A stretch of DNA of 64,000 nt from Vescimonas coprocola (GCA_963660615.1 CAVKYE010000002.1:24073-88072), one strand, 5' to 3'. Positions 10,898-38,672 are shown, numbered from the stretch's first letter. Translations and numbers: made by a program. Notes: generated from the letters alone by a model not told the origin.

Positions 10898-10976
10898 ACA
10901 CTTACTTTTTTTGTAATCAAATGTCGAAAACCTATAAAACAATAAAAAAATATTGTACTATAATTTTGGTGATAAT

Positions 10977-11783
10977 ATGACATTAGAAATAAAAGGAAAA
11001 GAATATAAAATAAACTATCAAGAAAGCTTAAACAAATATCAAAAAGAAATAAATAAACAAAACCCAAGCATCAAAGAAAACTTCAAAAAATATAAAATAA
11101 AAGAATTTACCCTAAAAAGCAAAAACAAAATAGTCACATATGAAATAAACGGGATCCCCCACGCAATAATCACAAATAAAAGCATCAAAGAAAAAATCAT
11201 AGAAAAACTAAACCCTAAAAAAGATATAGAAAATCAAATAGAAGATATTCTTTCAAAAGAAAGCAATAAAATATTAAAAACCGAAACCATCATAAATAGT
11301 GGCAAACTAACCATCGAAAAAGCTGACATACTAAGAATCATTAAAACAAAAGCCGAAACAGAAGCCGCCTTTTGGGTAAACACAAACAACAAACAGATAA
11401 AAGGTATAGTATTAATAAACAATATTTGCTGGAAACCAGTAGTAATTCATTCATTAAACTTAAACAAAATAGACGATATAGAATTTCCCAAAGAAAGAAG
11501 TATAAACCCAAACGAAGCCAAACTATTAAACGATAATCTAATAAACATATACCTAAACCTAATAAAATATAAAACACTCACCCAAGACCAAGTCATACTA
11601 ATAGATAAATGCGACGAAGAAAATATCCCAAACACCCTAAAACCTCTATATAAAGAAATAATAAACTTATACCAAAAAAGAAAAACAAAAAACGCCTACA
11701 TCGAAGCCGCATTAATAATTTTCCTAAGTGGTCTCTTAACAGGAACCATCATAATCACTATATTTAAACTTACAATAATATAA
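10977..11783 (+). CDS. hypothetical protein with C-terminal TM anchor
   Basis: Start moved to the ATG that follows a GGTGAT SD (MTLEIKGKEY). C-terminal helix AALIIFLSGLLTGTIIITIF. No family recognised. Confidence 0.45.
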   Translation: MTLEIKGKEYKINYQESLNKYQKEINKQNPSIKENFKKYKIKEFTLKSKNKIVTYEINGIPHAIITNKSIKEKIIEKLNPKKDIENQIEDILSKESNKILKTETIINSGKLTIEKADILRIIKTKAETEAAFWVNTNNKQIKGIVLINNICWKPVVIHSLNLNKIDDIEFPKERSINPNEAKLLNDNLINIYLNLIKYKTLTQDQVILIDKCDEENIPNTLKPLYKEIINLYQKRKTKNAYIEAALIIFLSGLLTGTIIITIFKLTII

Positions 11784-15871: not shown

Positions 15872-15907
15872 TCAAAAACAAAAACCTAAGTGATTTTCAC
15901 CTAGGTT
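15872..15907 (-). terminator. intrinsic terminator downstream of the yjcZ-like C-terminal fragment
   Basis: On the minus strand: stem aacctaggtg / cacttaggtt (one mismatch), then TTTTTGTTTTTG. Confidence 0.6.
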
Positions 15908-15911
15908 CTCT

Positions 15912-16049
15912 TTAATTATTACTACCAAAAGATCTTGCCCCAATAATAATAACTAATAAAATAAATAAAACAAGAACAATAGCAGCACCATATCCAGTAC
16001 CATAATTAGCACTACCATAAGGCACTCCACATCCATATGCTTGTATATA
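15912..16049 (-). pseudogene. C-terminal part of a split YjcZ-type tiny sporulation membrane protein
   Basis: The minus-strand frame reads YIQAYGCGVPYGSANYGTGYGAAIVLVLFILLVIIIGARSFGSNN*. It has no start codon of its own and begins inside the left junction repeat. The Gly/Tyr-rich stretch followed by a ...VLFILLVIIIG helix matches the YjcZ family pattern. Confidence 0.6.
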
Positions 16050-16064
16050 CCTTAGGCGTAGAAA
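16035..16064. repeat. left junction (attL-like), 30 bp
   Basis: atatgcttgtatataccttaggcgtagaaa is the exact reverse complement of 29962-29991. Palindromic core gtatatac at 16043-16050. Confidence 0.8.
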
Positions 16065-16065
16065 G

Positions 16066-17081
16066 TGAAATCTTATAAAGGGCTTATAATACAGGGCAAA
16101 AATAGAAAATCGAAAAAAATTGTTTGGGCAAAAAATCGCAGTTGTTTCAAATTCTTTTTTTGTTTTGGTTGTAAAAATATCTAAAAGTTCTTTTCTAAGC
16201 TCTTCGTTAGTTGTTATATGATGAATAGCTTGCTTAAAGTGGAACTCACAAAAATATTTTCTATTTTATCAAAGTCATATTTTTATTATAAAACATTGAC
16301 AATTTGTTCCCACGGATTACTACCATATACAGTCTTTACTGTTTTGTTTTTTCAAAGCATTTCTATGCTTTCCAACTTTTTCTACGCCTTCAAAAGCAAT
16401 CATACATTTAGCCATTATATCATTTTCTAAATCTTGGCAGCCTAAAAACTTTTCATCAGCCATTACATAAAGTGTTTTAGGAGTATCTACTGGTTCATAA
16501 ACAGATTTTGGTGCTTTCCATTCGTTAAGCCAATTATAAATCGATTGCCTAGAAATATGGAGTAATTTTCTATCTAAGCATAGCTCTTTTAAAGTACTTA
16601 TTTGTTCACCAGTTTCTCTCCCAGCTTTAGCTTGATCAAGAGAAACTGCTTTATCAATCGCCATACCTTTAACGATAGGATCATAATGGTCATATTTGGG
16701 CAGTCCAAAAACATAATCGATGAAAAATAATTTAGATTTATTTAGTTTGGAAACATAATAATTTCTATTAAATGTTATCTCTCCAAAAGGGGTAACTAAA
16801 GTTCTTCTTACCTTGGATTTATTGATATAGTACTTTGCTTTTCTTTCGTGTGACATTGAGTACGCATTATCAATTTCTTCAAAGGTATCAACTAATACTT
16901 TTAATATCAAATTGCGTGTTTGTTCTTGTATTGTAGATACTAGCGAAAAATATTTGTTTGAGTTATCCACCATCGTAAGTGACTTAATTATTTCGTTGAC
17001 AAAAGCATCAGTAATTGATAAGATGTTTTCTTTCAATCTTTTTTTTAATAAATTTTGACAAAAATGTGGTATACTATTCAT
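16066..17081 (-). pseudogene. ISLre2/UPF0236-family transposase remnant (truncated or frameshifted)
   Basis: The 253-aa ORF 16320-17081 (..TLVTPFGEITFNRNYY.., ..LYVMADEKF..) resembles the N-terminal half of UPF0236/ISLre2 transposases. A further open, Met-less frame (CEFHFKQAIHHITTNEELRKELLDIF...) continues to the element edge. Full-length relatives are about 450 aa. Confidence 0.55.
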
Positions 17082-17215
17082 GGAAAAACCTTCTTTCGTG
17101 TAATTTTTTTGGTGAAAATATTATATCAGGTTTTTCCTTTTTTTGTATTCCGAAACTATTTTACACTATCACAAATGATATAAATTTTGAATATATTAAA
17201 ACTTTTGATAAAATA

Positions 17216-17563
17216 ATGATTGAAAGATTTTATACTAATTCAAAAATTTTATATCCATATATTGAAGACATAATTAATAGATATAATGTCAATATTTTAA
17301 AATTTAATATCGATAATAAGAATGACGTGGATATGTTGTTCGACTTATTAAGATGTGCTGTAACATCAAATTGTTCTGAATTGGATTTTTTATACCAATT
17401 ATATGGAGACATAGAGGATTTAAAAAAGCAAAAATCTGGAGATGAGTATTATATTTTTACCGACTATAAAATAAAATGGAGAATTGCTTTCAAGGAAATG
17501 GACAAAAAGTATAGTGCTTGTGAGATGATTTTAGGAATAAATAATTTGAAGAAAAAAGAGTAG
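17216..17563 (+). CDS. hypothetical protein
   Basis: An internal ATG was chosen because the upstream part of the track ORF overlaps the transposase remnant. No motif recognised and the SD is weak. Confidence 0.35.
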   Translation: MIERFYTNSKILYPYIEDIINRYNVNILKFNIDNKNDVDMLFDLLRCAVTSNCSELDFLYQLYGDIEDLKKQKSGDEYYIFTDYKIKWRIAFKEMDKKYSACEMILGINNLKKKE

Positions 17564-17575
17564 GATGAGGGGGAA

Positions 17576-17827
17576 ATGAATTATATAGATGTTTTGCGTG
17601 AGATTACAAATATTACAATGTGTACGTCGATAACACTTTTAATTATTTTGTTGTATAAAGTATTGTTTTTAGATTATTTAGATAGACACAAAGTATTAAA
17701 TAAGATTATCGATAACCTATTTGCGCTTTTAATTATTTTAGACGTTTTCTCAATGATTTTTATAGTGGCTTTTCCAAATGTGATTTCAGTAGTTAATAGT
17801 TTGTTTGAAAAAATATTTAATTTGTAG
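17576..17827 (+). CDS. hypothetical small membrane protein
   Basis: SD gagggggaa upstream. Two hydrophobic helices (ITMCTSITLLIILLYKVLFL and LFALLIILDVFSMIFIVAF). Confidence 0.4.
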   Translation: MNYIDVLREITNITMCTSITLLIILLYKVLFLDYLDRHKVLNKIIDNLFALLIILDVFSMIFIVAFPNVISVVNSLFEKIFNL

Positions 17828-17974
17828 TCAAAATGAAAAAATATTATTTTATTAGTTTTGCGTAGAATAGGTATGGGATTCTTCCTCCAAAAAATAAGGT
17901 TTATACTTTAAGTCATTGTGATATAAAGCAAAGAATAGTCAAAATTTCCGTGATTATAATGCATTAAAAATGTA

Positions 17975-18003
17975 TTGACAATTAATCAAATCGATGTTAG
18001 TAT
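17975..18003 (+). promoter_or_regulatory. sigma-A type promoter of the cargo operon
   Basis: TTGACA (17975-17980), a 17-nt spacer, then TAGTAT (17998-18003). Confidence 0.5.
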
Positions 18004-18039
18004 ATTTACATTGGTGGAAAATCATCAATGAGGTGAAAT

Positions 18040-18138
18040 ATGATAAATAGTGATGAGAAATTTATGATATGTTTTGATTATATATTATTTAGCGATAATA
18101 ATAAATTTTTACTGACTAAAAAAAATGAGAGCAATTAA
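18040..18138 (+). CDS. candidate 32-codon leader ORF (MINSDEKFMICFDYILFSDNNKFLLTKKNESN)
   Basis: GAGGTG SD 5 nt upstream. The stop codon lies inside the 5' arm of the downstream terminator stem. Confidence 0.3.
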   Translation: MINSDEKFMICFDYILFSDNNKFLLTKKNESN

Positions 18139-18162
18139 CTTTAGGGTTGATTGTCTCTTTTT
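18127..18162 (+). terminator. leader terminator/attenuator upstream of the cargo operon
   Basis: gagaGcaattaact-ttag-gggttgattgtctc forms about 13 bp with one bulge and two G-U pairs. It is followed by TTTTT and lies 19 nt before the operon ATG. Confidence 0.5.
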
Positions 18163-18180
18163 AAAAAATTAGGAGGTTTT

Positions 18181-18762
18181 ATGATTTATTTTATTTGCGG
18201 ACATAGGGGTTGTGGGAAAAGTTATTTAGTAAGTCAACTTAAAGAAACTATCAAGTGTAAAGTTTATGATACAGGTCCTATATTAAGAAACGAGTATAGA
18301 AAATTTAGTTTGAATTCTGATGTGCCATTTGGAGAGTGGGTTGAAATTAATGAGCAAACGTATGGTGAAAATTTTACAAATCAAGTTATTTGCGAAAATA
18401 TGAATTTAAATTTAGATGAAACAAATATCATTATTGGAAATAGATCGATGATTGGAATAAAATATGCTATTGAATATTTTGGTATAGATAATTATAAAAT
18501 ATGTTTTATTGATGGTGATTTTGACTTGTTTAGGTTAAATTATAATAAAAGAGAAAAATCAAATTTAGATGAAGAAGAGTTTGGGAAAATTATAGCATTA
18601 GAAAATAGTATGGGGATAGAAGAAATAGAACGTTTTGTAAAAAGTAATCCAACTATTGGGTTATATTTTTATAAAGAGACTAATGATGACTTAATATTTC
18701 AAACTATTTTGGAAGACATTAACAATACAAAACCAAAGGTAAAAAAAAGGAGTGAATTATAA
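18181..18762 (+). CDS. P-loop kinase, nucleoside-monophosphate-kinase-like
   Basis: Strong AGGAGG SD. Walker A GHRGCGKS at the N-terminus. VYDTGPILRNEY is reminiscent of the adenylate-kinase NMP-binding STGD.LR motif. The track TTG start at 18151 was rejected. Confidence 0.55.
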   Translation: MIYFICGHRGCGKSYLVSQLKETIKCKVYDTGPILRNEYRKFSLNSDVPFGEWVEINEQTYGENFTNQVICENMNLNLDETNIIIGNRSMIGIKYAIEYFGIDNYKICFIDGDFDLFRLNYNKREKSNLDEEEFGKIIALENSMGIEEIERFVKSNPTIGLYFYKETNDDLIFQTILEDINNTKPKVKKRSEL

Positions 18763-19407
18763 ATGATGGATTGGTATGATGTTTATTTAGAACAAATAAA
18801 TAAAAGTGGTGGAGATAAATCTTATATGGCATTTAAGATTTATCACAAGAAAAAATTGTTGAAAATTTTAAGAAAATATAGTGGAAAAGGGAAATTAATA
18901 GAGGCAGGATGTGGAACAGGTATTATAACTTCACAGTTAGCCAATGAAGGCTATGATGTGACTGGTGTAGATATAAATAAAAAAATATTGAAATTATGTA
19001 AAAAATTAGAAAAAGAATATTTTGGTACTAATAAGGCTAAATATGTTGAAAAATCAATATTTAATTTGGACTTTCCCAAAAAAAGTTTTGATTTATGTTT
19101 TAGTTGTGGTGTTTTGGAGCATTTTGAAGACAATGAAATAATTAATTCAATAAAACAGCAAATAATGATAGCAAATAAGGTAATTATTGTTATACCCACA
19201 AAATGGTTTGATGATGAAGAGGCATTACACGGGGATGATAGATTTTTAAAACTTTCATATTGGAGAAAATTAATTAAAACAAGTGGTGGAAAAATAATAA
19301 AAGAATATTCATACCCTTTTAAGCAAAAATATTATCAAAAAATAAAAAATATTAGAAAAATATTCAGGCCTAAAGCATATAGAGTTTTTGTTGTAGAAGA
19401 AGGTTAG
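18763..19407 (+). CDS. class I SAM-dependent methyltransferase
   Basis: Motif I LIEAGCGTGIIT, then the acidic loop DVTGVDIN and motif FDLCFSCGVLEHF. The start abuts the upstream stop. Confidence 0.85.
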   Translation: MMDWYDVYLEQINKSGGDKSYMAFKIYHKKKLLKILRKYSGKGKLIEAGCGTGIITSQLANEGYDVTGVDINKKILKLCKKLEKEYFGTNKAKYVEKSIFNLDFPKKSFDLCFSCGVLEHFEDNEIINSIKQQIMIANKVIIVIPTKWFDDEEALHGDDRFLKLSYWRKLIKTSGGKIIKEYSYPFKQKYYQKIKNIRKIFRPKAYRVFVVEEG

Positions 19408-19411
19408 TAAG

Positions 19412-21118
19412 ATGGAAAAAAAGTTTCCAATAATAAAAGCAGGACATATATTTAACCCCTATAAAATAGAAGGTGTAGCAGAATTAAAATTAGATTCTAT
19501 AGTATTAAATTACCCTTGTAGATTAGATGCAATGGCTATAAACCCAGCAGCAGTTGTATATAACTCTGATATGGTATTTACCCCAGGCGAAGTAGTTGTT
19601 TCATTAAATAAATACATAAAAGTAACAATAAAGGTTTTATCTGAAAAAGGTGGGAAAATAATAATTTCAGAGAAAACAAAAAGAAAAGTATTAGTCAAAC
19701 ATTCTTATTTATTGATGTGTTCCGCATTAAATGTCTTTCCTTCTCTGGAAATAGATGTAGATGATAATAATATTCCTAAACATCGTGGATTTGGCTCTAG
19801 TAGTTCTACAATTAGTGCGGTAGCCGCAGCAATAAATGAATTATATGGTTGTCCTATAAAAAATGGCGATTTAATTAAATATTTGGCTTCTAATCACGGA
19901 GAAGAAATAAGTGATGATGATGAAGAAAATTTAAAAGTTGTTCAATGCATTGGAGGGGGTGCTACTAACGGTTTAACAAAGGAAGGAATAATTATTATAG
20001 CCGGTAAATCTACGACTATAGGAAAGTTAGAATATAGCGGTGATGTTTTAATTGGAGTGCCTAAAGATTTTGTGCAGAAAGATGCTAAAGTATTGATGGA
20101 ATTGGAAGAACAAAATCTATGGAAATTTAAAAAAACAGGTGAAGATTATGCTGAAAATATTGCCTATAATTTATTACATAAGGCTTTACCTGGGTTGGCT
20201 AACGGAGATATAAAAGAGTTGGCGGATGTAGTATATGAATATAGATTCAATATGGGAAGTAATGAAAATTGTTCTTTTGTTTATGATGGATTAGTTGAAT
20301 TAGGAAATAATTTAAGATGCTTATACGAGAATAAAGATTGTGAATTTTTAGCGCTATCTTCTGTTGGCCCTGCTTTCTTTGTTATAGTTAATAATGAAAG
20401 ACAAAAACAAAAATGTAAAAATAAAATGGAAGAATTAGCGATGAATGTAATAGAATCGTCAATATGTAATACTACATATCTAATAGAAGAAAAAGAAGAT
20501 AAAAAAATATATTGGCAAGAACAAACAACAAATATTGCGTTTTCGAATAAAGAGCCTTCTAAATATATTACAGATGTTTTAGAAAAAATTGATTTAAAAA
20601 ATAAAAATTGTATAGATATTGGTTGTGGTGGAGGAAGATATACAAAGTATCTTCAAAAAAGAGAAGCCAATGTTTTGGCAATAGATAAGTACCCAGAAAT
20701 GATAGGAAATGTTTATTCACAAAAAATAAATTTTATTAATTGTGATATGAATAATATTCCTGTAAAAGATGATTCATATGATTTAGTACTATCAATTGGT
20801 GTTATACATAATGCGATAACAGTAGATGAGTTTTATAAATCAATAGACGAGATATATAGGATTGCTAATGAGAGCGGTAACGTTGTTTTGTCCTTATTTA
20901 CAAATGATATAATTACAGATGATCTAATAGAATATGGACCAAATTTATATAAAATTAAAAATAGACCACCAATGGTATTATTTTCAAAAGAACAAATAAC
21001 AAAAATATTAAAAGAAAAAAATTTGCATATAGTAAAAGTTATAGATGAACATATAACAGATGTTGGCGGTGGTAAAAGAAATGTTTATACATTATTATTG
21101 GAAAAAAAAGTTATATAA
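19412..21118 (+). CDS. fusion protein: GHMP-kinase-superfamily (beta-RFAP-synthase-like) domain + class I SAM methyltransferase domain
   Basis: The N-terminal ~360 aa carry YPCRLDAMAINPAA and the phosphate-loop-like IPKHRGFGSSSSTISAVAAAINELYG. The C-terminal ~190 aa carry motif I CIDIGCGGGRYTKYL and YDLVLSIGVIHN. Confidence 0.6.
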   Translation: MEKKFPIIKAGHIFNPYKIEGVAELKLDSIVLNYPCRLDAMAINPAAVVYNSDMVFTPGEVVVSLNKYIKVTIKVLSEKGGKIIISEKTKRKVLVKHSYLLMCSALNVFPSLEIDVDDNNIPKHRGFGSSSSTISAVAAAINELYGCPIKNGDLIKYLASNHGEEISDDDEENLKVVQCIGGGATNGLTKEGIIIIAGKSTTIGKLEYSGDVLIGVPKDFVQKDAKVLMELEEQNLWKFKKTGEDYAENIAYNLLHKALPGLANGDIKELADVVYEYRFNMGSNENCSFVYDGLVELGNNLRCLYENKDCEFLALSSVGPAFFVIVNNERQKQKCKNKMEELAMNVIESSICNTTYLIEEKEDKKIYWQEQTTNIAFSNKEPSKYITDVLEKIDLKNKNCIDIGCGGGRYTKYLQKREANVLAIDKYPEMIGNVYSQKINFINCDMNNIPVKDDSYDLVLSIGVIHNAITVDEFYKSIDEIYRIANESGNVVLSLFTNDIITDDLIEYGPNLYKIKNRPPMVLFSKEQITKILKEKNLHIVKVIDEHITDVGGGKRNVYTLLLEKKVI

Positions 21119-22181
21119 ATTATCTAACAGAGATTATTTATGTGATTATTCAAAAATTGAGTCAAAAACAATAGATATGACATTATCAGGAAGATATTTA
21201 TCATCATACCCAAACGTTCAAATATCTATTTCAGAATTTGATAAATATCCTCTATTGACCAACATTAGGGAGTTAGAAGAATTAATTAAGACAAAAACAT
21301 CGACAAACGATGAGATAATAATTGGCAGTGGAGCAAATGGATTATTACAGAATATAATTAAAATATTTTTTAGAAATAGAGGTAATTTAATAACATCATT
21401 TTATTCGTTTGATCAAGCGGAGTATGCAGTAACTTCATTTGATGGAGTAACAAAAAGAGTATATACAAACAATTACAGTTTAGATTTAAACAATGTTATA
21501 AAGGCGATTGATAAGAAATCAAAAATGATTTATATTTGTAATCCGAATAACCCAACAGGAAAATTTATTAATTCAAAAGACTTAATAGAGTTAACAAAAA
21601 AAACAAAAATACCGTTAGTAGTGGATGAATCTGGAATAGAATTTACAGGTAAGAAAGGAATTTTAGAATCAGTACAAAAATTACCTGAAAATTTATTGGT
21701 ATTAAGATCATTTTCTAAAGCATACGGATTAGCAAATTTAAGAATAGGTTATTTAGTTTGTTCAAGGGCATTTAAACAAATTTATCTTAAAAACATAACA
21801 ACTAATGAATATTCTGGGATTTCCTGTTTAATAGCAAAAAATATATTAAATTCATCCGAAAAATATATGGAACAGAATGTTAATCAAATAATAGAAGAAA
21901 AAGTAAAAATGGTAAATCAATTAGAAAAGATGGGTATATATACTGTAGAAAGTTATTCTAATACTATTTTCACCAAAACAATTTTTGATAATAAATTTAT
22001 GAAAGAGTTAGAAAAGAATGATATATCGGTTGTACCCATTTATGATAGAAATAATAATTTACATATTCGTATTGCAATTCAAGATAAAGAAACTAATTCA
22101 GTATTTGTAAAAAAAATGAATGAAATAATGAAAAATAAGAAACTGGTGTTAGGAAAAGAAGAAGATAGAGGTGATATTTAA
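21081..22181 (+). CDS. class I/II PLP-dependent aminotransferase, histidinol-phosphate aminotransferase (HisC)-like
   Basis: ICNPNNPTGKFI, LVVDESGIEF and the Schiff-base lysine motif LRSFSKAYGLANLRIGY. The start is uncertain (21060 or 21081; 21081 follows GGTGGT). Either start overlaps the upstream gene. Confidence 0.85.
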   Translation: MFIHYYWKKKLYKLSNRDYLCDYSKIESKTIDMTLSGRYLSSYPNVQISISEFDKYPLLTNIRELEELIKTKTSTNDEIIIGSGANGLLQNIIKIFFRNRGNLITSFYSFDQAEYAVTSFDGVTKRVYTNNYSLDLNNVIKAIDKKSKMIYICNPNNPTGKFINSKDLIELTKKTKIPLVVDESGIEFTGKKGILESVQKLPENLLVLRSFSKAYGLANLRIGYLVCSRAFKQIYLKNITTNEYSGISCLIAKNILNSSEKYMEQNVNQIIEEKVKMVNQLEKMGIYTVESYSNTIFTKTIFDNKFMKELEKNDISVVPIYDRNNNLHIRIAIQDKETNSVFVKKMNEIMKNKKLVLGKEEDRGDI

Positions 22182-23338
22182 TGAAAATATCTTTAGCAAC
22201 TAATTTTGATGATGAATTAATTGATGGGATAAAAAATTATCCTGTATATGAAATATATGGTAAATTAAAAAATGATTTCATCGGTGGTGGAAGACCGGAT
22301 AATGATTTAATAGATGTCCAAAAGGAAAGATTTGAAAGACATATAAAAAAGACTAGAGAAGCTGGAATTAAATTTAATTATTTATTAAATGGTAGTTGTT
22401 TGTCAAACAATGAGCAAGATATTGGTTGGCAGAAAAATTTCAAAGATTTTTTAGATTATTTAAAATCAGTTGGAGTAAATGCTTTGACAGTAACTAATCC
22501 ATATATATTACAATTTATAAAAAAATACTTTAAAAATGATTTTACTGTTAGAATTTCTACTTTTGCTTGTATTGACTCTTTTGAAAAAGCAAAGTATTGG
22601 GAACAAATGGGAGCAGATTATATTTGCGTTGATTTTGTTAAAATAAACCGTGATTTTAAAACTTTAAAATATATGGTTGAAAATTTGAAAAAATCAAAAA
22701 TAGAAATTTTAGTTACAAATAGTTGTTTGAAAAATTGTCCTATGATTTATACGCACACTAATGGACTAGCCCACGCTTCTATGAAAGACAATAAAACAAG
22801 TGCTTACGAAGATTGGAGTTTATTTTATTGTCAAAAAAAAGAATTAGAAAATTTAGAAGAATATATAAAATCTCCCTGGGTAAGGCCTGAAGATATAAAA
22901 TATTATGAAGAAATAGGAATAGAGCATTTTAAGATTACAGAAAGAGATTTTCCTACATCAGAATTAATAAAAAGAGTAAAGGCTTATACCGAAAGAAAAT
23001 ACAATGGAAATTTATTAGATCTTATACAAGGTCACGGTTGTCTAGCAAAAAGTAATCTGACGTTAGTAAAAAATGAAGTTTCAACAAGAAAAGAAATATA
23101 TGACGAAATAAAGAGAGTAAGAGGATTAGGAAAAGTTAGAGAATGTGAAAGACACATATTTATTGATAATACCAAATTAGATAATTTTATTAAATTTTTT
23201 CTAGAAAATAAATGCACAAATCAATGCGATAAATGTAATTACTGTAAAAAAATATCTAATAGTGTAATCACAAAAAATGAGGATATATGTGAATATTTAA
23301 AATATTTATATAATAAATATGATGATATTAAAATGTAA
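22181..23338 (+). CDS. U32-peptidase-family-like TIM-barrel protein with Cys clusters (possible Fe-S enzyme)
   Basis: ISLATNFDDELID..YGKL..FIGGGRP, FNYLLNGSC and EILVTNSCLKNCP resemble a U32 subfamily. The C-terminal end carries CTNQCDKCNYC (CX3CX2CX2C). TAATG overlap with the upstream gene. Family call is tentative. Confidence 0.5.
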   Translation: MKISLATNFDDELIDGIKNYPVYEIYGKLKNDFIGGGRPDNDLIDVQKERFERHIKKTREAGIKFNYLLNGSCLSNNEQDIGWQKNFKDFLDYLKSVGVNALTVTNPYILQFIKKYFKNDFTVRISTFACIDSFEKAKYWEQMGADYICVDFVKINRDFKTLKYMVENLKKSKIEILVTNSCLKNCPMIYTHTNGLAHASMKDNKTSAYEDWSLFYCQKKELENLEEYIKSPWVRPEDIKYYEEIGIEHFKITERDFPTSELIKRVKAYTERKYNGNLLDLIQGHGCLAKSNLTLVKNEVSTRKEIYDEIKRVRGLGKVRECERHIFIDNTKLDNFIKFFLENKCTNQCDKCNYCKKISNSVITKNEDICEYLKYLYNKYDDIKM

Positions 23339-23484
23339 TTTTTTATGGATAAAATAATAGCATTGATATACTAAATATCATCGTCGAGGATTAACCGGAT
23401 TCGACGAAATAAATGTATACAGTAAAGAAATAAAAGTCTTACGTATATACATAAGATTATGATAAAAATAGGAGGAATTAAAAA

Positions 23485-24072
23485 ATGAAAAAACTAATTT
23501 ATTTAACCACAAATCCTCATAAGGTTGAGGAAGCAAATGAATTTTTTGGAAAAAAGTATGGATTTAACATAGAGATAGTGAATCCTGATTTTGAAATATT
23601 GGAGATACAAGCCGAAAAATGTTCGGAAGTAGCAGCATTTAGCGCTAAATATGCTGCTGATAAATTAGGATGTGCTGTCTTAAAATCTGATTCAGGACTT
23701 TATATAGATGCATTAGGAGGATTACCAGGACCATACAATCATTATTTTGATAAACAGATTGGTGTAGAAAAATTTTTAGAGTTATTTAAAGACGAAACAA
23801 ATAGAAAGGCAAGATTAGAACATTGTTTTGCCTATTGTGAGCCAGGCGAAGATCCAATTGTATTTAGTGGTGGAGGCACTGGAACTATTGCTTATAAGGC
23901 TGAAGGCCAAAGAGGAAGATGGCACGATAAATTTTATATACCCGATGGAGAAGAACAGACATTGAGTGTATTAAGGGATATTGATTATGAAAAAGAAGCA
24001 TCATATTGGGGAGATGCTAAAGATCAATTTGCTAAATGGTATTCTGAAAAATACAAAGATGAATTAAAATAA
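23485..24072 (+). CDS. HAM1/ITPA-type non-canonical NTP pyrophosphatase
   Basis: TTNPHKVEEANEFF (TxNxxKxxE), KSDSGLYIDALGGLPGPY, and RWHDKFYIPDGEEQTLS, which aligns with the ITPA-type GWDPCFQPDGYEQT. Confidence 0.85.
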   Translation: MKKLIYLTTNPHKVEEANEFFGKKYGFNIEIVNPDFEILEIQAEKCSEVAAFSAKYAADKLGCAVLKSDSGLYIDALGGLPGPYNHYFDKQIGVEKFLELFKDETNRKARLEHCFAYCEPGEDPIVFSGGGTGTIAYKAEGQRGRWHDKFYIPDGEEQTLSVLRDIDYEKEASYWGDAKDQFAKWYSEKYKDELK

Positions 24073-24258
24073 TTAAATAAAAAATGTGTAAAAGAAATTC
24101 AAAAATACACGTTTTTTCGAATTCAAATTGTATCAATGAAGACTATAAAATAAGTTGTTCTTTTATACAACAAAATGTGCTAAAAGTTTAATTACTTTAT
24201 TTTCTATCTAATTCGTAAGTTTTGGAGACTGAAAAAATGGCGGAAAGGAATGTTGATT

Positions 24259-24789
24259 ATGGAAAATTTGATTTTAGATGAAGCAGGCTATGCTGCATAT
24301 TTGGAAGATATACATAAACAAGAAGAAAGATTAGCAAAACTAAGAAAATTTAAAGGGGAAGTTGCAATTTATGAAGGAGACGCTTGGCACGATAATTTTA
24401 CTTTTGAACAGACCGAGGCTGAAGAGAGAATGTTAATGGCTGATATTGCAAACAGATATGAAAAACTATCAAAGGCTACGGTTGTGGAGTCTAGCGCCGG
24501 TTTAGGAATTGGTATAAATGACTTGGTTAATATTACTATCACGATCGGAACAAGAGTGAAGGAAATGCATATTTTGATTGTATCATATAAAGATCAAAAT
24601 GAAGATACCGTCGTGTCCGAAATACCTATAAAACAAGTTACTTTGGATAGTCCGTTAGGCAGAGCATTATACCAAAAAGAAGAAGGAGAAGATTTTTCAT
24701 ATAGTGTTGGTGAAAAAAGGATTGAAGGTAAAATTATTTCCGTTGATAAATTTGAACCATTATCTGAAGAAAAAGTAAAAAGGATATGA
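24259..24789 (+). CDS. GreA/GreB-family-like protein (paralog 1)
   Basis: N-terminal coiled coil with GDAWHDNFTFEQTEAEER in place of the Gre GDLSENAEY tip. C-terminal domain with VTLDSPLGRALYQKEEGEDFSY. Second ATG chosen for SD spacing. Confidence 0.7.
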   Translation: MENLILDEAGYAAYLEDIHKQEERLAKLRKFKGEVAIYEGDAWHDNFTFEQTEAEERMLMADIANRYEKLSKATVVESSAGLGIGINDLVNITITIGTRVKEMHILIVSYKDQNEDTVVSEIPIKQVTLDSPLGRALYQKEEGEDFSYSVGEKRIEGKIISVDKFEPLSEEKVKRI

Positions 24790-24879
24790 TACTTGCAATA
24801 AAAATAATGAAATATGTTGTTTATGATTACAATTCTACTAAATAGTATTTCGATTTGCAAATGAATAAATCGAAAATAA

Positions 24880-24923
24880 AAGAATGATATAAATTTAGTG
24901 ATTATTGTTATCATTCTTTTTTT
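24880..24923 (+). terminator. intrinsic terminator
   Basis: 10-bp stem aagaatgata / tatcattctt followed by TTTTT. Confidence 0.7.
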
Positions 24924-25063
24924 GTTTTAGATTTATAAAAATTAAGAAATGTATTGAAACGAAAAAAATGTTAATTTGATTTATTTTAAATTATTTACTT
25001 ATCTGATATATAATAGTATAATCTGATAAAGGATAATTTTATAAGGTTGAATGGAGAATCAGT

Positions 25064-25537
25064 ATGGATAAAATATATATGACAAAAGAAGGTTATGACA
25101 AAAAAATAAAAGAATTTGAAGAAACAAAAAGATTATTAAAAGAAACATCAAAAAATAAAATAGAAGCAGCCTATGATGGCTCTGGTGATACTTGGCACGA
25201 TAATTTTACTTATGAACAGTTAGATTTACAAGAAACAGGACTCCTATCGCGATTGGAAAGTATGCAGGAATTATTAAGTAATGTGGAAATTGTTGAAAAA
25301 AAATCATTAGAGAATAATGTTGTTAATTTAGGAGATCGAATTGCAATTGAGATATACTATGAAGATGGTGAATGTGAAGCATTGGATGTGATTCTTGACG
25401 AGTCGACAGAAGATGAAAATGCTGTGACTTTGAGTTCTCCATTAGGAAAAGTTCTTTATATGTCAAAAATTGGAGATAAACGTACATATTTAGTTAACGG
25501 TAGCACAAATACTGTTATTATAAAAGATAAGTTATAA
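25064..25537 (+). CDS. GreA/GreB-family-like protein (paralog 2)
   Basis: GDTWHDNFTYEQLDLQE tip motif. C-terminal VTLSSPLGKVLYMSKIGDKRTY. Confidence 0.7.
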   Translation: MDKIYMTKEGYDKKIKEFEETKRLLKETSKNKIEAAYDGSGDTWHDNFTYEQLDLQETGLLSRLESMQELLSNVEIVEKKSLENNVVNLGDRIAIEIYYEDGECEALDVILDESTEDENAVTLSSPLGKVLYMSKIGDKRTYLVNGSTNTVIIKDKL

Positions 25538-25707
25538 TATGCGTAATGAAAGAAAATTATAATTAATACACATACTTATTTTATAATATGCTAATAAAAA
25601 AGATTTAAGTGCTATATTATAAACTCTTAAATTTTTAAAATTACTAGAATATCGTATGTAAAAACATCATGTGAAATATATGGCAGTATTTGATATTTAT
25701 ATTTAAA

Positions 25708-25739
25708 CAAAAAAACTATGACTTAACGATAGTTTTTTT
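25708..25739 (+). terminator. intrinsic terminator
   Basis: aaaaaaactat / atagttttttt stem with a 9-nt loop. Confidence 0.6.
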
Positions 25740-25955
25740 CGTTCAAGCAACAAAACACTACTTTCAAGCATAAAATAGTCACAATTTTAAAAATTTAATT
25801 ATAATAGCCCTCCTAGTGAGGTTTGTTATATGGCGGATTCTTTTTCATTTGAAAAAGAATATAGAGGGGAACAAGTAAATATTTTTTATAAAAGAGGCAA
25901 TTTGTCTATTTTTAGATACTTTGTCTCTTTTTTTGTATTCGTTTTTATCAGAGGA

Positions 25956-25991
25956 CCTCCTTTTAACGATTTTAAATTCGTTAGAAGGAGG
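25956..25991 (+). promoter_or_regulatory. 14-bp hairpin that sequesters the Shine-Dalgarno of the sigma-like gene and is followed by a T run
   Basis: CCTCCTTTTAACGA-ttttaaat-TCGTTAGAAGGAGG (one G-U pair), then TTTTGTT. The 3' arm contains GGAGG. Confidence 0.55.
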
Positions 25992-26000
25992 TTTTGTTAT

Positions 26001-26612
26001 ATAGAAAGGCCAAAAAGAAGAAAAGATAAATATAATCCTTATGTTATTTCTATAGAGGATAATATATACAAAGTTTCTTTTAAAGATGTTAAAGGCAAAA
26101 TACAAATAGTCATAATAACAAGAGAAATTTTTGATTTATTGAATACTTTTGAATTAGAAGATTTATCTATAATGAATGAATATGATAATCACATTGAACA
26201 TAGTGAGTTAATGGAACATAATTTATATGTTAGAGCAAAAGAAAAGCCATTGAGTATAGAAAATGAAGTAATGAAGAAAATATCTTTTGAAATTTTGAAA
26301 GAAGCAATATCTATGTTGCCTGATATACAAAGACGTCGAATTAAAAAATATTATTTTGAGGATAAGACTGAGCAACAAATAGCCGATGAAGAGGGAACAA
26401 CCCATCAAGCAGTACATACTATATTAGAAAGAGCAAAAAATAATTTAAAAGAAATTTTAAAAAATTTAATTAAGTGTTTGCAATTTAGCGTTTTAGTTAG
26501 GAAACAAGTGAAAGGGTATTTATTATTCTTTCTCCTGTTTCCTTTTTGTTTTGGTAATAGGATGTTGTTCTTTGAAACCTTAATACGCATTCATCAAATA
26601 CATTCCTATTAA
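26001..26612 (+). CDS. sigma-70 region-4 / HTH regulator typical of clostridial serine-recombinase elements
   Basis: ERPKRRKDKYNPYVISIEDNIYKVSFKD... and LPDIQRRRIKKYYFEDKTEQQIADEEGTTHQAVHTILERAKNNLKEIL (region 4.2-like HTH). There is no in-frame ATG/GTG/TTG near the SD. The first plausible codon is ATA at 26001 and the next ATG is at MNEYDNH. Confidence 0.55.
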   Translation: MERPKRRKDKYNPYVISIEDNIYKVSFKDVKGKIQIVIITREIFDLLNTFELEDLSIMNEYDNHIEHSELMEHNLYVRAKEKPLSIENEVMKKISFEILKEAISMLPDIQRRRIKKYYFEDKTEQQIADEEGTTHQAVHTILERAKNNLKEILKNLIKCLQFSVLVRKQVKGYLLFFLLFPFCFGNRMLFFETLIRIHQIHSY

Positions 26613-26658
26613 AAATAGCACGTTAGTAAGTGCGCTTGCGATAAACACTTGACTATAA

Positions 26659-26677
26659 AATTAGGTAGCACCTAATT
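26659..26677. promoter_or_regulatory. palindromic operator-like site AATTAGGT-AGC-ACCTAATT
   Basis: Perfect 8-bp arms overlapping a TTGACT hexamer upstream of mazF. Confidence 0.45.
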
Positions 26678-26680
26678 TGC

Positions 26681-26706
26681 AAAGACATTTAATAAAGACA
26701 TTTAAT
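26681..26706 (+). repeat. tandem 13-bp direct repeat (aaagacatttaat x2)
   Basis: Two exact adjacent copies, read directly. Confidence 0.6.
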
Positions 26707-26792
26707 AGAATTAAAGATACTCCTGTCTCGCCATAATCTCAAATAATGGAGGCAGCCTAGAGAGAACCTCTAGAAGGTGTAATTCTTGTGAT

Positions 26793-26811
26793 ATTGAATT
26801 AGCAATTCAAT
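26793..26811. promoter_or_regulatory. palindromic operator-like site ATTGAATT-AGC-AATTCAAT
   Basis: Perfect 8-bp arms with the same AGC spacer as the site at 26659. Confidence 0.45.
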
Positions 26812-26907
26812 AGTTTGATGAATCCCATATTGTGGGGCTAGAGGATAAATAACAATAAGAAATAATAAAAGGGATATATTCCCTAATTACATATTAAGGA
26901 GGAAAAA

Positions 26908-27264
26908 ATGAACACATTAAAAGGAAGCATATATTATGCGGATTTAGATCCTGTTATAGGAAGCGAACAAGGAGGAATACGTCCAGTTGTTATTCTGCAA
27001 AATAGTATTCAAAACTATTATAGTGAAACAACGGTAGTTGCACCTATCACTACAAAAGTTAAAACCGGAGGCTTTCACGTCTTTTTAAAAGCGGATAAAA
27101 CATTAAAGAATGATTCAGTAATATTGTTAGAACAGATACGAACTATTGATAAATCGCGTCTACTAACTTATATAGGTAAACTTTCACAAGAACATTACAG
27201 AAAAGTGAATAACGCCTTAAAGAAAATGTTCTATTTAGATTGGGAAGTACACAATGTAAAATAA
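26908..27264 (+). CDS. MazF/PemK-family endoribonuclease toxin
   Basis: GSIYYADLDPVIGSEQGGIRPVVILQN...VVAPIT...DSVILLEQIRTIDKSRL. Strong AAGGAGG SD. Confidence 0.9.
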   Translation: MNTLKGSIYYADLDPVIGSEQGGIRPVVILQNSIQNYYSETTVVAPITTKVKTGGFHVFLKADKTLKNDSVILLEQIRTIDKSRLLTYIGKLSQEHYRKVNNALKKMFYLDWEVHNVK

Positions 27265-27472
27265 TTTGTTGCACCAATTATGTGATGATATAAGTTAAAA
27301 TAATTAATTATGTAGGTATCAAAGGAATTAAGAACTAATACTATATTTTAGCCACCACTAAAACAACGTGGCAAATAATAAAAAGCATTTTACTATGTTT
27401 TTTATTTTGTCGTAAATAGAAGAAAAAAAGAATAATATTTAATAGAAAATTATCATATGAAAGGAGCATGGG

Positions 27473-27673
27473 ATGAAAACATATAAAGTAAAAGTGAAGT
27501 TGCAGACAAATATTGATGTATCTGCTACAAGTAAAGAAGAATCAATCGAAAAAGTAAAAAAATTAATAAAGGACTGCGTTAACGAAAAAACATTTGAAGC
27601 CCTAAAAAGCCTATTGATAGAATGCAGTGAAATAAAATATACTTCAAAACTTATAAAAAAAGAACATCGTTAA
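27473..27673 (+). CDS. hypothetical 66-aa K/E-rich protein
   Basis: AAAGGAG SD. No family recognised. Confidence 0.45.
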   Translation: MKTYKVKVKLQTNIDVSATSKEESIEKVKKLIKDCVNEKTFEALKSLLIECSEIKYTSKLIKKEHR

Positions 27674-27696
27674 CAAAAAGTATAGGGGGTAAAAAG

Positions 27697-27795
27697 ATGT
27701 ATGAAATTATAAATGTTTTTTCAAGCACAGATGAACTAAAACAAGAAAATTTTAATAAAGTATTAGCAGAATTAATTTTCAAACTAGAAAATAAC
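27697..27795 (+). CDS. candidate 32-aa ORF (MYEIINVFSSTDELKQENFNKVLAELIFQTRK)
   Basis: GGGGGT SD-like sequence 6 nt upstream. Located immediately upstream of the recombinase gene. Not in the ORF track because it is too short. Confidence 0.3.
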
Positions 27796-27881
27796 ACCAC
27801 CACACATTTGAATCTTGAATAATCTCATAATATGATTATTTCGTATTATAAGCCATTAACGAAAGGTAGAGTGATAATACT

Positions 27882-29951
27882 ATGTTTGAACAAAAAGTTT
27901 TTATAAGAAATGGAGATGAAAGAGTAGGTGGTTATGTAAGAATTTCTCAAAAAGACCGTACAAAACTAACACCAAACCAATTAAGTGCTAGTATTGAAAA
28001 TCAAATCACAATGTTAAAAGACTATTGTGATAACAATAAATGGAATTTAGTTAATATATATTGTGACGAAGATATATCTGGTGCCGACCAAACAAGGCCT
28101 GAGTTTAATAAGCTTATTAAGGATTGTGAAAGTGGTAAAATAAATGTTGTTTTATGCAAAGCACAGGATAGATTTGCGAGAGATATGGAAATGATTGAAA
28201 AATATGTTCACAACAAATTTATTGAGTGGGGAGTTAGATTTATAACAATTGTAGACCACGCAGATAATGCTGTTATGGAAAATAAAAAGAACCGTCAAAT
28301 AACAGGGCTTACAAATGAATGGTTACTAGAAGATATGTCAAATAATATAAGAACCACATTAAACTCAAAAAGAAAAAATGGTGACTTTGTAAGTTCTTTC
28401 GCCCCTTACGGGTATAAAAAAATAAGAGATTCAAGGAAGAAAATACATTTAGTTATAGACCCTGTCGCTGCTGAAGTAGTTAAAAAAATATTTAATGACT
28501 TTAACAGTGGCAATTCTATCAGGTCTATTGCAAGAGATTTAAATGAACGATGTATTTTAAGTCCTTCAGAATACAAAAAGAAAAATGGAGAAAACATACA
28601 TATTCCTACAAAAATAATTAACTCAAACAAGTTCGAAAATTCATCAGCATATATCTTAAAATATAATTACTTTAGTGATAATTTAAAAATTAACACTAAA
28701 GTTCATTTGTTTTGCAAAGTAGATGTTTCGTCACCAGAATTAGTCAAAAATATTGAACTTAAAGTATTTGGTGGCAATCAAAGTAAAATTTATTATACAA
28801 AATATGATTTTAATACTGATAACATTTTGGAAGCAAAAAAACAATATAAAAAATGGATAAAATTAGAAGACTCAAATGAGATACCATCAAACGTAAAGTA
28901 CATAAGAGTTGATTTTAATGTAAACAAACTTTATGAAGAATTAAGTATTGAATTTGAATTAAAAATAAACAAAAATATTAATAGAGATTATGTGAGCATC
29001 TCTCATATTTCTTATATAAAAAATGAATTGATGGAGAAACATTTCCAATTAAATGCAAGATACAAAAGCAAATGGAAAAAGGAAAAGGTGAGAGAAATAA
29101 TCAAAGACCTTGTTTACATTGGCACATTAGCCCAGGGTAAAAGAACTACCATAAGTTATAAAAATAAAAAGGTAGTAAACATACCTAAGAGTCAATGGAT
29201 AATAGTACCTAATGTTCACGAACCAATAGTAAGTAAAAAGACTTATTTGAAAGCACAAGAGCAACTAAACAGTCTTAGTAAGTCAGTATCAACTCCAGAA
29301 GTCAATATGTTTTCAGGTATCTTAAAATGTGGATATTGTGGTCGGAATTTTAGAGCAACAAAATGTGGCCGTGCTGGTGATAAAAATCAAGTATCATATT
29401 TTATATGTGCTGATAGAAGTGAAAAGTTTATTAATTGCAAGAATAGAACGCAATTAAGACAAGACACTTTAAAAGAGTTAACACTAAACGAAATTAACAA
29501 GATAATCAAAAACTTGAAAGAGGATTCCACACTTTCGAAATTTTACCAAGATAACGTTGAACATCATAGTGGAATAGATGATAAATACAACGCATTAGTA
29601 TTAGAAAATGAAAGACTTATTAAAGAAAAAGAAAAAAAAAACCATTACTCGAAAGGACTTTATGAAAATAAAATAAATGGATTCATTGATGAAGAAGAAT
29701 TTGTTACATATAAACAGTCATATAAAGATGAAATAAAAAAAATAGAAGAAAGACAATTAAAAATTATAGAAGAACAAGAAGCCTTGAAACTCAAAAAAGA
29801 GGATATTAAAAATATTAAAGAAATAGTAAAGAAGTATGATACATTAACAGAACTTAATTATGATGTCATTCACGAACTTATTAGTGAAATAACTATTGGC
29901 GTTAAAGAAGAGGGCAAACCAAGAAAAATTTCATTTAAATGGAATTTTTAA
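27882..29951 (+). CDS. large serine recombinase
   Basis: Resolvase catalytic domain (GGYVRISQKD with the Ser at residue 22). Recombinase domain (FAPYGYKK, LVIDPVAAEVVKKIF, VYIGTLAQGK). Zinc ribbon (CGYCGRNF...C...C). Long K/E coiled coil and C-terminal tail. The stop is 25 bp from the right junction core. Confidence 0.92.
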   Translation: MFEQKVFIRNGDERVGGYVRISQKDRTKLTPNQLSASIENQITMLKDYCDNNKWNLVNIYCDEDISGADQTRPEFNKLIKDCESGKINVVLCKAQDRFARDMEMIEKYVHNKFIEWGVRFITIVDHADNAVMENKKNRQITGLTNEWLLEDMSNNIRTTLNSKRKNGDFVSSFAPYGYKKIRDSRKKIHLVIDPVAAEVVKKIFNDFNSGNSIRSIARDLNERCILSPSEYKKKNGENIHIPTKIINSNKFENSSAYILKYNYFSDNLKINTKVHLFCKVDVSSPELVKNIELKVFGGNQSKIYYTKYDFNTDNILEAKKQYKKWIKLEDSNEIPSNVKYIRVDFNVNKLYEELSIEFELKINKNINRDYVSISHISYIKNELMEKHFQLNARYKSKWKKEKVREIIKDLVYIGTLAQGKRTTISYKNKKVVNIPKSQWIIVPNVHEPIVSKKTYLKAQEQLNSLSKSVSTPEVNMFSGILKCGYCGRNFRATKCGRAGDKNQVSYFICADRSEKFINCKNRTQLRQDTLKELTLNEINKIIKNLKEDSTLSKFYQDNVEHHSGIDDKYNALVLENERLIKEKEKKNHYSKGLYENKINGFIDEEEFVTYKQSYKDEIKKIEERQLKIIEEQEALKLKKEDIKNIKEIVKKYDTLTELNYDVIHELISEITIGVKEEGKPRKISFKWNF

Positions 29952-29961
29952 AAAAACTTTT

Positions 29962-29991
29962 TTTCTACGCCTAAGGTATATACAAGCATAT
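29962..29991. repeat. right junction (attR-like), 30 bp
   Basis: tttctacgcctaaggtatatacaagcatat is the exact reverse complement of 16035-16064. Core gtatatac at 29976-29983. Confidence 0.8.
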
Positions 29992-30017
29992 CCTTGATAT
30001 CCGCCATAATAATACAT
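29976..30017 (-). pseudogene. N-terminal part of the split YjcZ-type gene
   Basis: The minus strand reads aggaggaataatt-ATG then MYYYGGYQGYACIY, running into the junction core. As integrated it reads on into the element (..LRRRKKVFLKIPFK*). Confidence 0.55.
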
Positions 30018-30153
30018 AATTATTCCTCCTATCTAACTTCAGTATATTGTACGCAACTTAACACATTTTGGATATTAAAAACACCTATTTTTTATTTTGT
30101 ACTACAAAATATTTAAATAATATGATATTATATTATAAGATAGGAGCGTAAGT

Positions 30154-38604: not shown

Positions 38605-38672
38605 ATATCATTACTTCCTTCCATTTTATTATATGTTTTTTCTAAAAAAAAGTTTTATTTAAATTCAAAATA

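Follow-up and report, generated by a model that had tools for sequence, protein, structure and literature searches.

A serine-recombinase element divides a conserved small gene beside ftsW: a candidate intervening element of sporulation

The 64,000-nucleotide stretch CAVKYE010000002.1:24073-88072 of assembly GCA_963660615.1 (the window, taken at its full length) contains a 13,953-bp non-phage element with a large serine recombinase at one end, and the DNA on its two sides reads as the two parts of one small gene. The locus raises the question of whether this is an intervening element, removed during sporulation so that the gene is rebuilt, or an ordinary island that has knocked out its target. 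An earlier note on this DNA had proposed that one small gene is split by an element carrying a large serine recombinase at its end. This is borne out, the fragments together corresponding to intact orthologues, and we have high confidence in the structural part as a whole (a conserved gene, split by an element with a recombinase). Sporulation-timed excision in the mother cell, rebuilding the small gene, is held more tentatively and in our judgement falls a little short of an even chance.

The 5′ part is on the minus strand: AGGAGG is followed by an ATG at 30017 and the frame MYYYGGYQGYACIY, which then enters foreign DNA; as present, this 5′ open reading frame (ORF) continues into the terminal repeat of the element and stops after 28 codons. 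The same strand resumes 13.9 kb away in a frame ..YIQAYGCGVPYGSANYGTGYGAAIVLVLFILLVIIIGARSFGSNN whose stop lies at 15912, followed by a terminator-like hairpin (15910-15880). Both the opening and the continuation had been described in the earlier note and stand as described. The insertion lies within codon 10 (Tyr-10) of a 50-codon gene, which otherwise retains an intact start codon, ribosome-binding site, promoter-like motifs, 3′ reading frame and terminator. Identical junctions recur in at least seven independent assemblies, across samples, so the split arrangement is not a mis-assembly.

Within the species of the window the arrangement is constant. The left end of the element adjoins def in 7/7 contigs with an identical Def protein (seven samples), and in contigs with an identical FtsW the recombinase is found upstream in every case in which the contig covers that side. 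All strains examined have the same terminal repeat, though they differ by single-nucleotide polymorphisms (SNPs) elsewhere. The 3′ fragment varies among strains by two synonymous changes (GGA>GGT, GGG>GGT) and one replacement (GTG>GCG, V>A, at a position where the family often has Ala), and its frame stays free of stops and frameshifts. This variation fits continued constraint on the fragment, although three changes prove nothing.

The position of the join is given by the orthologues. Because intact orthologues read MYYYGGYQGY|GCG through this point without extra residues, the join is placed at QGY|GCG (DNA CAAGGATAT|GGATGT), which yields a 153-nt ORF of 50 amino acids. Of the joins compared, only the ATAT join yields the family sequence. 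Confirmation comes from a sister element, L125 (loci and contigs used for comparison are given by L numbers, recombinase proteins by P numbers). Here the order is def, 3′ fragment, an element of about 7 kb, a 5′ fragment MYYYGGYQG followed by a stop, and ftsW, with junctions TACCAAGGATA|ACTACGATG.. and ..GGAACATCAAGGATA|TGGTGGATACCC. The contig L140 is an empty site from the same species as L125, 99.6-99.7% identical to both L125 flanks, with the 8-bp core CAAGGATA as the exact overlap of the two alignments. As the L140 empty site matches the predicted L125 join, precise insertion at this position is confirmed, and the protein predicted from the joined L125 halves exists as an intact ORF in public data.

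The L125 element is one of several at this site, which is occupied in at least three organisms besides that of the window. The closest full-length relatives of the window recombinase (P0122-P0129) have 49-53% identity and share with it an insertion of about 160 residues. At L125 (P0128, 51%), L128 (P0129, 49%) and L139 (P0124, 52%) a related recombinase lies directly upstream of ftsW, beside a 5′ fragment cut at the same codon, and the cargo differs: L125 carries an AMP-binding enzyme, a hybrid histidine kinase, a 36-aa ORF and the recombinase, and L128 carries glycosyltransferases, PHP-domain proteins and an AMP-binding enzyme. L138 (P0122, 53%) has a backbone like that of the window (sigma-region-4 protein, antitoxin and PemK toxin, 41-aa ORF, recombinase), and its contig ends at the predicted crossover. 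FtsW identity to the window is 47% for L125 and 69% for L128, which makes their hosts different organisms from that of the window.

The target of these insertions is conserved. Searching with the joined peptide returned 691 homologues of 48-70 aa, which begin MYYYGGYQGYGCG and end ..LVLFILLVIIIGAR..; those inspected start MYYYGGYQGYG(C/G/S).. and finish ..YGAAI(I/V)LVLFILLVIIIGAR.., and one carries the NCBI name ‘sporulation protein YjcZ’. At L001-L004 an intact 48-aa orthologue stands between ftsW/spoVE and def plus an arylsulfotransferase gene, neighbours that the window fragments share, the small gene lying divergently upstream of ftsW/spoVE. Among 80 species-representative loci fetched via FtsW, all from metagenome-assembled genomes of uncultured small-genome gut ‘Bacilli’/‘Tenericutes’ (including Ca. 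Coprosoma, CAG:822, CAG:878 and Ca. Faecisoma), about 76 have the intact gene in that position and none has it interrupted.

The best explanation of the target is a predicted 50-aa Gly/Tyr-rich, single-helix membrane protein of YjcZ type, conserved in this lineage. It resembles the YjcZ family (PF09680, TIGR01732) in its tiny size, its Gly/Tyr-rich head and its single strongly hydrophobic helix (..AAIVLVLFILLVIIIG) ending in Gly. The rebuilt protein reaches 22.0 bits with Pfam YjcZ_2 (PF09680; gathering cut-off 21) in a match confined to the transmembrane helix, and only 17/81 family members match PF09680 at E<=0.01. TIGR01732 gave no match to the rebuilt protein, and the 3′ fragment scored 11.2 bits against a cut-off of 21.35. 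The YjcZ-type identity suggested earlier is accordingly marginal by the Pfam model and not supported by TIGR01732. The invariant MYYYGGYQGY head and the fixed place beside ftsW/spoVE define a distinct subfamily. No report of this gene as the target of an intervening element was found in the literature searched, in agreement with the earlier inference that the target may be new.

The conserved DNA upstream of the small gene has a likeness to promoters active in the mother cell. In the form cited in PMC2695774, the B. subtilis GerE consensus is RWWTRGGYN2YY; a box matching that form occurs in 57/76 distinct orthologous upstream regions, whereas shuffled sequences gave 0.87. In all but one of the 57 the box begins 64-75 nt 5′ of the ATG, and in most box-bearing regions a −10 of CATAnAnT or CATAnnnTA type lies 36-37 nt downstream of it. 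The composite of box and −10 motif occurs once in the window, at the small gene, and no sigma-70-type promoter was found upstream of that gene. The B. subtilis yjcZ gene is a member of the sigma-K regulon (PMC517825). Taken together, these observations fit a late mother-cell gene, though as indirect evidence. The box, (A)AATTAGGTGTTTTTAATA, is strongly conserved lineage-wide upstream of the small gene (window, L009-L088).

The genomic setting is that of a possible spore former. The earlier note had listed spoIIM-like, spoVE/ftsW-like and yqfQ-like genes in the window; profile matches agree (SpoIIM family 57.3 bits, YqfQ family 29.3 bits), and a gene of the FtsW/RodA/SpoVE family flanks the site. 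The host is probably a member of the RF39-type Bacilli, predicted spore formers that carry spoIIM (PMC10868615). A sigma-K pattern match, AC-N17-CATATAATA, lies at 38627-38653 (minus), 23 nt upstream of the YqfQ-like gene (38248-38604), and is a lead only: AC-N-CATAnnnTA-type matches number 17 in the window, too frequent in AT-rich DNA to be informative.

The recombinase that would act on this site is intact, and four other assemblies encode an identical 689-aa protein. Its nearest solved structures are 3G13 (a C. difficile conjugative-transposon recombinase) and 2MHC (TnpX). An extra segment of about 160 residues within the recombinase domain (28590-29090, residues ~236-405) is present in the closest relatives (670-703 aa) and not in relatives of about 530 aa. 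Directly upstream lies a 41-aa ORF, and a small ORF occupies this place in each related element examined. Similar ORFs of 36-50 aa precede the recombinases of L138, L125, L139, L128 and L131, the 59-aa ORF of L129 fitting less well, and a motif I-x-N-x-F..FN-x-IL..LIFK-x-EN is common to most related elements (likeness judged by eye after positional ORF extraction). By analogy with GirX of the gin element (PMC5595907), the 41-aa ORF is a candidate for an accessory or directionality factor.

The terminal inverted repeats of the element are perfect over 30 bp and extend to 45 nt at 84%. We infer strand exchange at the TA of GGA-TA-T (16036-37, 29989-90), which gives the element its length of 13,953 bp. 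Dyad symmetry around a 2-bp crossover, expected of the ~40-50 bp attachment sites of large serine recombinases, is present in both the window and L125: by our reading of the sequence the window element site is a perfect palindrome centred on TA (..CAAGCA-TA-TGCTTG..), and the L125 element site has 16-bp arms and a 12-bp spacer with the same TA at its centre. The window junctions have ATATG in common and those of L125 CAAGGATA; placed on the gene, the two cores overlap in ATA, so the central dinucleotide is AT or TA, palindromic either way. In the element arms of the window, L125, L128 and L138 the TA has a TAAGG-type motif 11-12 bp away; the complementary CCTTA (Pro-Tyr codons) is found in the host arm, at a distance of 13 bp from the same dinucleotide.

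These features are best accounted for by a reversible, site-specific reaction in which the recombinase of the element integrates and excises it at TA. This reaction would run as follows. The recombinase would recognise a host site of about 40 bp, ..GGCGGATATCAAGGA-TA-TGGATGTGGAGTGCCTTATGG.., together with a symmetric site on the circular element, and the strands would be exchanged at the central TA. In the reverse reaction, between attL and attR, the recombinase would probably be assisted by the product of the 41-aa ORF as directionality factor. The junction of the excised circle would be a 60-bp perfect palindrome with core CTACGCCTAAGGTATATACAAGCA-TA-TGCTTGTATATACCTTAGGCGTAG (predicted attP junction ATATACAAGCATATGCTTGTATAT, longer form CCTAAGGTATATACAAGCATATGCTTGTATATACCTTAGG). 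On the chromosome, excision would rebuild ATG..CAAGGATATGGATGT.., encoding MYYYGGYQGYGCGVPYGSANYGTGYGAAIVLVLFILLVIIIGARSFGSNN, with a predicted attB junction GGATATCAAGGATATGGATGTGGAG (longer form GGCGGATATCAAGGATATGGATGTGGAGTGCC). Its most likely setting would be the mother cell late in sporulation, where skin, SPbeta and gin are also excised, while the germ-line copy would keep the element. We infer the TA crossover, the part played by the 41-aa ORF, and the timing and cell type of excision.

Several observations weigh against programmed excision. The uninterrupted allele that the earlier note had suggested seeking in relatives is present as syntenic intact genes, but exact look-ups of Def and FtsW found no empty site in the species of the window, where all informative contigs carry the element. 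The rebuilt 50-aa protein, in its V and A variants, is absent from a collection of 15 billion proteins, and neither an excision product nor a circle junction for the window element was found in assembled public data. None of the ~76 related species representatives is interrupted, hence the association with the element is sporadic and not ancestral. Membership of the YjcZ family is marginal, TIGR01732 having failed and PF09680 being barely passed. No sporulation-type promoter was assignable before the recombinase or the 41-aa ORF; a sigma-A-like TATAAT precedes several of the recombinase genes, with no other conserved promoter element there. The inferred core TA is palindromic, whereas characterised large serine recombinases usually use a non-palindromic central dinucleotide, which fixes polarity. 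A palindromic dinucleotide in a perfectly palindromic element site would forfeit control of orientation by the core, and a wrong-orientation reaction at such a site would only invert the element; no inverted copy was seen, every copy seen having the recombinase beside the 5′ fragment. In L128 the recombinase gene is frameshifted in an A10 run (9774-10001), leaving the N-terminal catalytic part in another frame. More distant recombinases are found at other genes. At L129 (6826-12295) a 38%-identical recombinase ends an element resembling an integrative and conjugative element (ICE), with coupling protein and sortase, and the final 72 codons of an ABC-transporter ATPase gene come next. At L131-L133 a P0174-type recombinase (10001-11602) in a Mob_Pre relaxase element abuts an Amidase_3-LysM gene (from 11629) at its HGG motif. 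Because these distant members split non-sporulation genes, intragenic targeting is a general habit of the family with no sporulation speciality. Finally, repeated loss of sporulation or of sporulation genes has been described in this lineage (PMC10868615), and the host is uncultured. The truncated 612-aa product of the L128 recombinase gene is found on five contigs, and a pseudogene, slippage or sequencing error are all possible.

Much of this would be expected if the element were an ordinary integrative or mobilizable island that uses a conserved coding sequence as attachment site, the small gene being knocked out and its loss tolerated, with excision unlinked to sporulation. We rate this almost as likely as sporulation-timed excision. 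The recombinase, with its DUF4368 tail, belongs to the TnpX/conjugative-transposon type, its relatives in ICE and Mob_Pre elements split the ABC-ATPase and Amidase_3-LysM genes, and the backbone of sigma-region-4 gene, toxin-antitoxin pair, small ORF and recombinase is common to other such elements; yet no relaxase, coupling protein, type IV secretion or replication gene was found among the ORFs of the window element that were scanned. Occupied and empty alleles both occur in the sister species of L125 and L140, as expected of a mobile island, and no excision product was seen for the species of the window, but that species carries the element in all seven Def contigs with both gene halves still open. 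A fixed knockout would also be expected to be costly for a target present and highly conserved at each related locus with the region in view (~76/80), and the same site has been kept by at least four diverged recombinase lineages.

An immobilised relic, which has lost excision and left the small gene permanently dead as part of the reductive evolution of the lineage, is improbable. It would account for the lack of an empty site in any same-species sample and for the decayed transposase inside the element, and would sit well with the frameshifted L128 recombinase and the repeated loss of sporulation genes in the lineage (PMC10868615). However, the 689-aa recombinase is full length with all its domains and identical in four other assemblies, the 30-bp repeats have stayed perfect and invariant among strains that differ elsewhere, and the expression signals, 3′ frame and terminator of the split gene are intact.

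Two further accounts are very improbable. The geometry proposed in the earlier note placed the crossover in a core GTATATAC, an 8-mer common to both junctions, with a 26-bp palindromic attB, a 30-bp palindromic attP and a product of ~59 aa; a junction of this kind would contain GCTTGTATATACAAGC. The frames of the two fragments differ by one base relative to the 8-mer, and a join through it is frameshifted, giving MYYYGGYQGYACIYKHMDVECLMVV.. and a stop; the crossover placed from the orthologues lies 13 bp outside that core. When cores of 4, 6, 8, 10 and 12 bp were tried, only those of 6 and 12 bp were in frame, and these would add ACIQAY or ACIYIQAY, residues foreign to every intact homologue inspected. 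That both derived sites are perfect palindromes, which had seemed to favour this geometry, follows automatically from perfect terminal repeats, since any symmetric cut through them yields two palindromes. The empty site of the sister element, moreover, shows the join at CAAGGATA|T. The length of ~59 aa arose from overlapping pieces that had been concatenated (the rebuilt ORF has 50 aa), and the empty site (catatgcttgtatatacaagcatatcc) and circle junction (ctacgcctaaggtatataccttaggcgtag) predicted from this geometry are both wrong. Exact look-up of its 56-aa and frameshifted products, and of the truncated 28-aa ORF, found none of them in the protein collection. A DDE transposon with 27-30-bp terminal inverted repeats and a 4-bp target duplication ATAT, moved by an ISLre2/UPF0236 transposase, would explain the perfect repeats flanked by ATAT on both sides and the UPF0236/ISLre2-like ORF ~260 bp from the left end, but that transposase is truncated (positions 9-203/400) and the DNA up to the element end is too short to hold the rest of it, sister elements at this site lack such a gene, have different ends and always have a homologous serine recombinase, and a recombinase stop 38 bp from the crossover is the usual layout of a serine-recombinase element.

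Excision linked to sporulation, tentative as it is, would place the window element beside a small set of known systems. The closest is gin of Bacillus cereus ATCC 10987, which interrupts the 225-bp gerE, is not of phage type and is excised by a serine recombinase (GirC) and a 6.5-kDa directionality factor (GirX) (PMC5595907). Both are non-phage elements in a very short late mother-cell gene (predicted to be so for the window target), with a recombinase at the end and a small protein nearby, a long inverted repeat around a short shared core, and a precise reconstitution of the ORF, here predicted. Unlike gin, the window element has a single recombinase where gin has three, a perfect repeat and an inferred palindromic TA core, a YjcZ-like target, and a host among the uncultured small-genome gut Bacilli; excision during sporulation is shown for gin, while for the window element it is a prediction. 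The skin (sigK/SpoIVCA) and SPbeta (spsM/SprA-SprB) elements of B. subtilis and the skin of C. difficile are likewise serine-recombinase elements in mother-cell genes (PMC4191935, PMC5499854, PMC5025042), kept in the germ line, and the logic of excision in a terminal cell would apply to the window element too. In contrast, these are prophages or their remnants, whereas PHROGs profiles matched no phage structural gene among the 10 element ORFs scanned (only integrase, MazF-like and sigma-like matches) and Pfam likewise indicated no phage genes among the ORFs scanned. The window recombinase is nearer the TnpX/conjugative-transposon type, and skin is widespread in sigK whereas the window element is sporadic among species. 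Set against skin, SPbeta, vfbin, vrin and gin (PMC4191935, PMC5595907), both the target and the host lineage would be new.

TnpX- and TndX-type elements (Tn4451, Tn5397), and with them the serine-recombinase ICEs and integrative and mobilizable elements of Firmicutes, resemble the window element in other respects. They share the domain set including DUF4368 and provide the nearest solved structures, have a sigma-region-4 regulatory gene upstream, and insert in ORFs at sites resembling the element joint; relatives of the window recombinase sit in ICE and Mob_Pre elements. They differ in that no genes for transfer or mobilisation were detected among the scanned ORFs of the window element, and in that its clade keeps one fixed site in a sporulation-type gene with a crossover that is apparently TA. 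Tn4451/Tn5397-type transposons use a GA crossover.

If excision is linked to sporulation, the few programmed rearrangements known in spore formers would gain a new target gene and a new, non-phage recombinase lineage, and would reach as far as uncultured small-genome gut Bacilli (RF39-like), for which sporulation is only predicted. Sporulation of these organisms in gut samples could then be followed by a junction-specific polymerase chain reaction or read signature, and the MYYYGGYQGY small protein, conserved but unstudied, would be singled out as functionally important. If excision is unlinked to sporulation, the element is a site-specific island of the ordinary kind and its effect is the knockout of a small gene. 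In either case the clade, a set of diverged large serine recombinases that share a single defined natural site and have a core that is apparently palindromic and a candidate small partner protein, is useful for work on specificity and directionality, and the conserved GerE-like box could help to find other late sporulation genes in these uncultured bacteria.

The remaining content of the element is listed with the features of the split gene in Table 1. The cargo operon resembles a small-molecule pathway, one possibility being an amino-alcohol phosphate with N- or O-methylation; PADLOC gave only weak methyltransferase-domain matches to mad2 in the cargo. The ORFs at 17015-17563 and 17576-17827 had no matches in the scans. 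The sigma-like protein has a 48%-identical homologue of 156 aa beside the recombinase of the related element L104, and a 156-aa Sigma70_r4 protein occupies the equivalent position in L138. When the 66-aa and other element ORFs were compared by BLAST with DNA near related recombinases, only the sigma-like protein matched. The transposase relic exists in strain versions of 253 aa and 288 aa (L094, L095, L098, L099), which differ by a 1-bp indel in an A run and by SNPs; several assemblies break near it, which suggests other copies in the genome.

Table 1 Features of the split small gene and of the element within it (window coordinates).
Feature	Position	Strand	Remarks
Terminator-like hairpin and T run	15880..15910	-	14-pair stem directly past the stop of the small gene; 1 site against 0.1 expected
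Small gene, 3′ fragment	15912..16034	-	Codons 11-50 and stop, GCGVPYGSANYGTGYGAAIVLVLFILLVIIIGARSFGSNN; alignable with intact orthologues
Left terminal inverted repeat (attR)	16035..16064	.	ATATGCTTGTATATACCTTAGGCGTAGAAA; perfect 30-bp match to right end; inferred crossover TA 16036-16037
Truncated ISLre2/UPF0236-type transposase relic	16320..17081	-	Pfam UPF0236 positions 9-203/400; NCBIfam ISLre2 positions 1-142/382; not the agent of insertion
Cargo operon	18151..24072	+	P-loop protein, S-adenosylmethionine (SAM) methyltransferase, GHMP-kinase/methyltransferase fusion, HisC/CobD-like pyridoxal phosphate (PLP) enzyme, U32-like protein, Ham1/RdgB nucleoside triphosphate (NTP) pyrophosphatase
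Two GreA-like paralogues	24250-24789, 25064-25537	+	Profile matches
Sigma-70 region-4 / helix-turn-helix (HTH) protein	25830..26612	+	True start probably further downstream
MazF/PemK toxin	26908..27264	+	PemK-family toxin at the same position in related element L138
66-aa ORF upstream of recombinase module	27473..27673	+	No family match
41-aa ORF	27697..27822	+	MYEIINVFSSTDELKQENFNKVLAELIFKLENNTTTHLNLE; directly upstream of recombinase; no Pfam or PHROGs match
Large serine recombinase, 689 aa, intact	27882..29951	+	Reads towards right end; Resolvase PF00239 77.9, Recombinase PF07508 68.8, Zn_ribbon_recom PF13408 39.9, DUF4368 22.2 bits
Right terminal inverted repeat (attL)	29962..29991	.	Inferred crossover TA 29989-29990, 38 bp past recombinase stop codon
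Small gene, 5′ fragment	29988..30017	-	Codons 1-10, MYYYGGYQGY; ATG at 30017
Ribosome-binding site AGGAGG	30025..30030	-	7 nt 5′ of small-gene ATG
Promoter-like region of small gene	30046..30090	-	GerE-consensus box AAATAGGTGTTT (30090-30079) and −10-like CGTACAAT (30053-30046)

Beyond the ftsW-side site, recombinases of about 530 aa that are 50-54% identical to that of the window are followed by a 5′-truncated cwlD-like ORF starting at ..HGGxDGGA (L100 4557-5140, L104 4601-5165, L113 2330-2659). The cwlD-like ORFs score 199.7 and 194.2 bits with TIGR02883 (cut-off 221.55) over model positions 7-189; for these loci 3-kb flanks were fetched, with one side only in view. A second sporulation gene may thus be split by this recombinase family, in three diverged lineages among L100-L113. 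The broadest formulation of the proposal would be a dedicated recombinase lineage that has co-evolved with one tiny late-sporulation gene beside ftsW/spoVE in uncultured, genome-reduced gut Bacilli that have never been seen to sporulate, forming a developmental switch with a palindromic TA crossover, a perfectly palindromic element site and a directionality factor of 36-50 aa, sister clades acting likewise on the cwlD-like amidase gene; we think this unlikely, though by no means negligible. A scan of viral contigs for relatives of the recombinase gave one match, a duplicate of a metagenome contig. The Amidase_3-LysM gene of L132 and L133 holds a second recombinase element, nested at a point deeper in the gene (second recombinase at L132 14234-15802). 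At L001 (8958-12147), from a sister species in which the small gene is intact, another serine recombinase of 521 aa lies just past the arylsulfotransferase gene, beside DpnII-type restriction-modification genes; the lineage seems rich in serine-recombinase elements.

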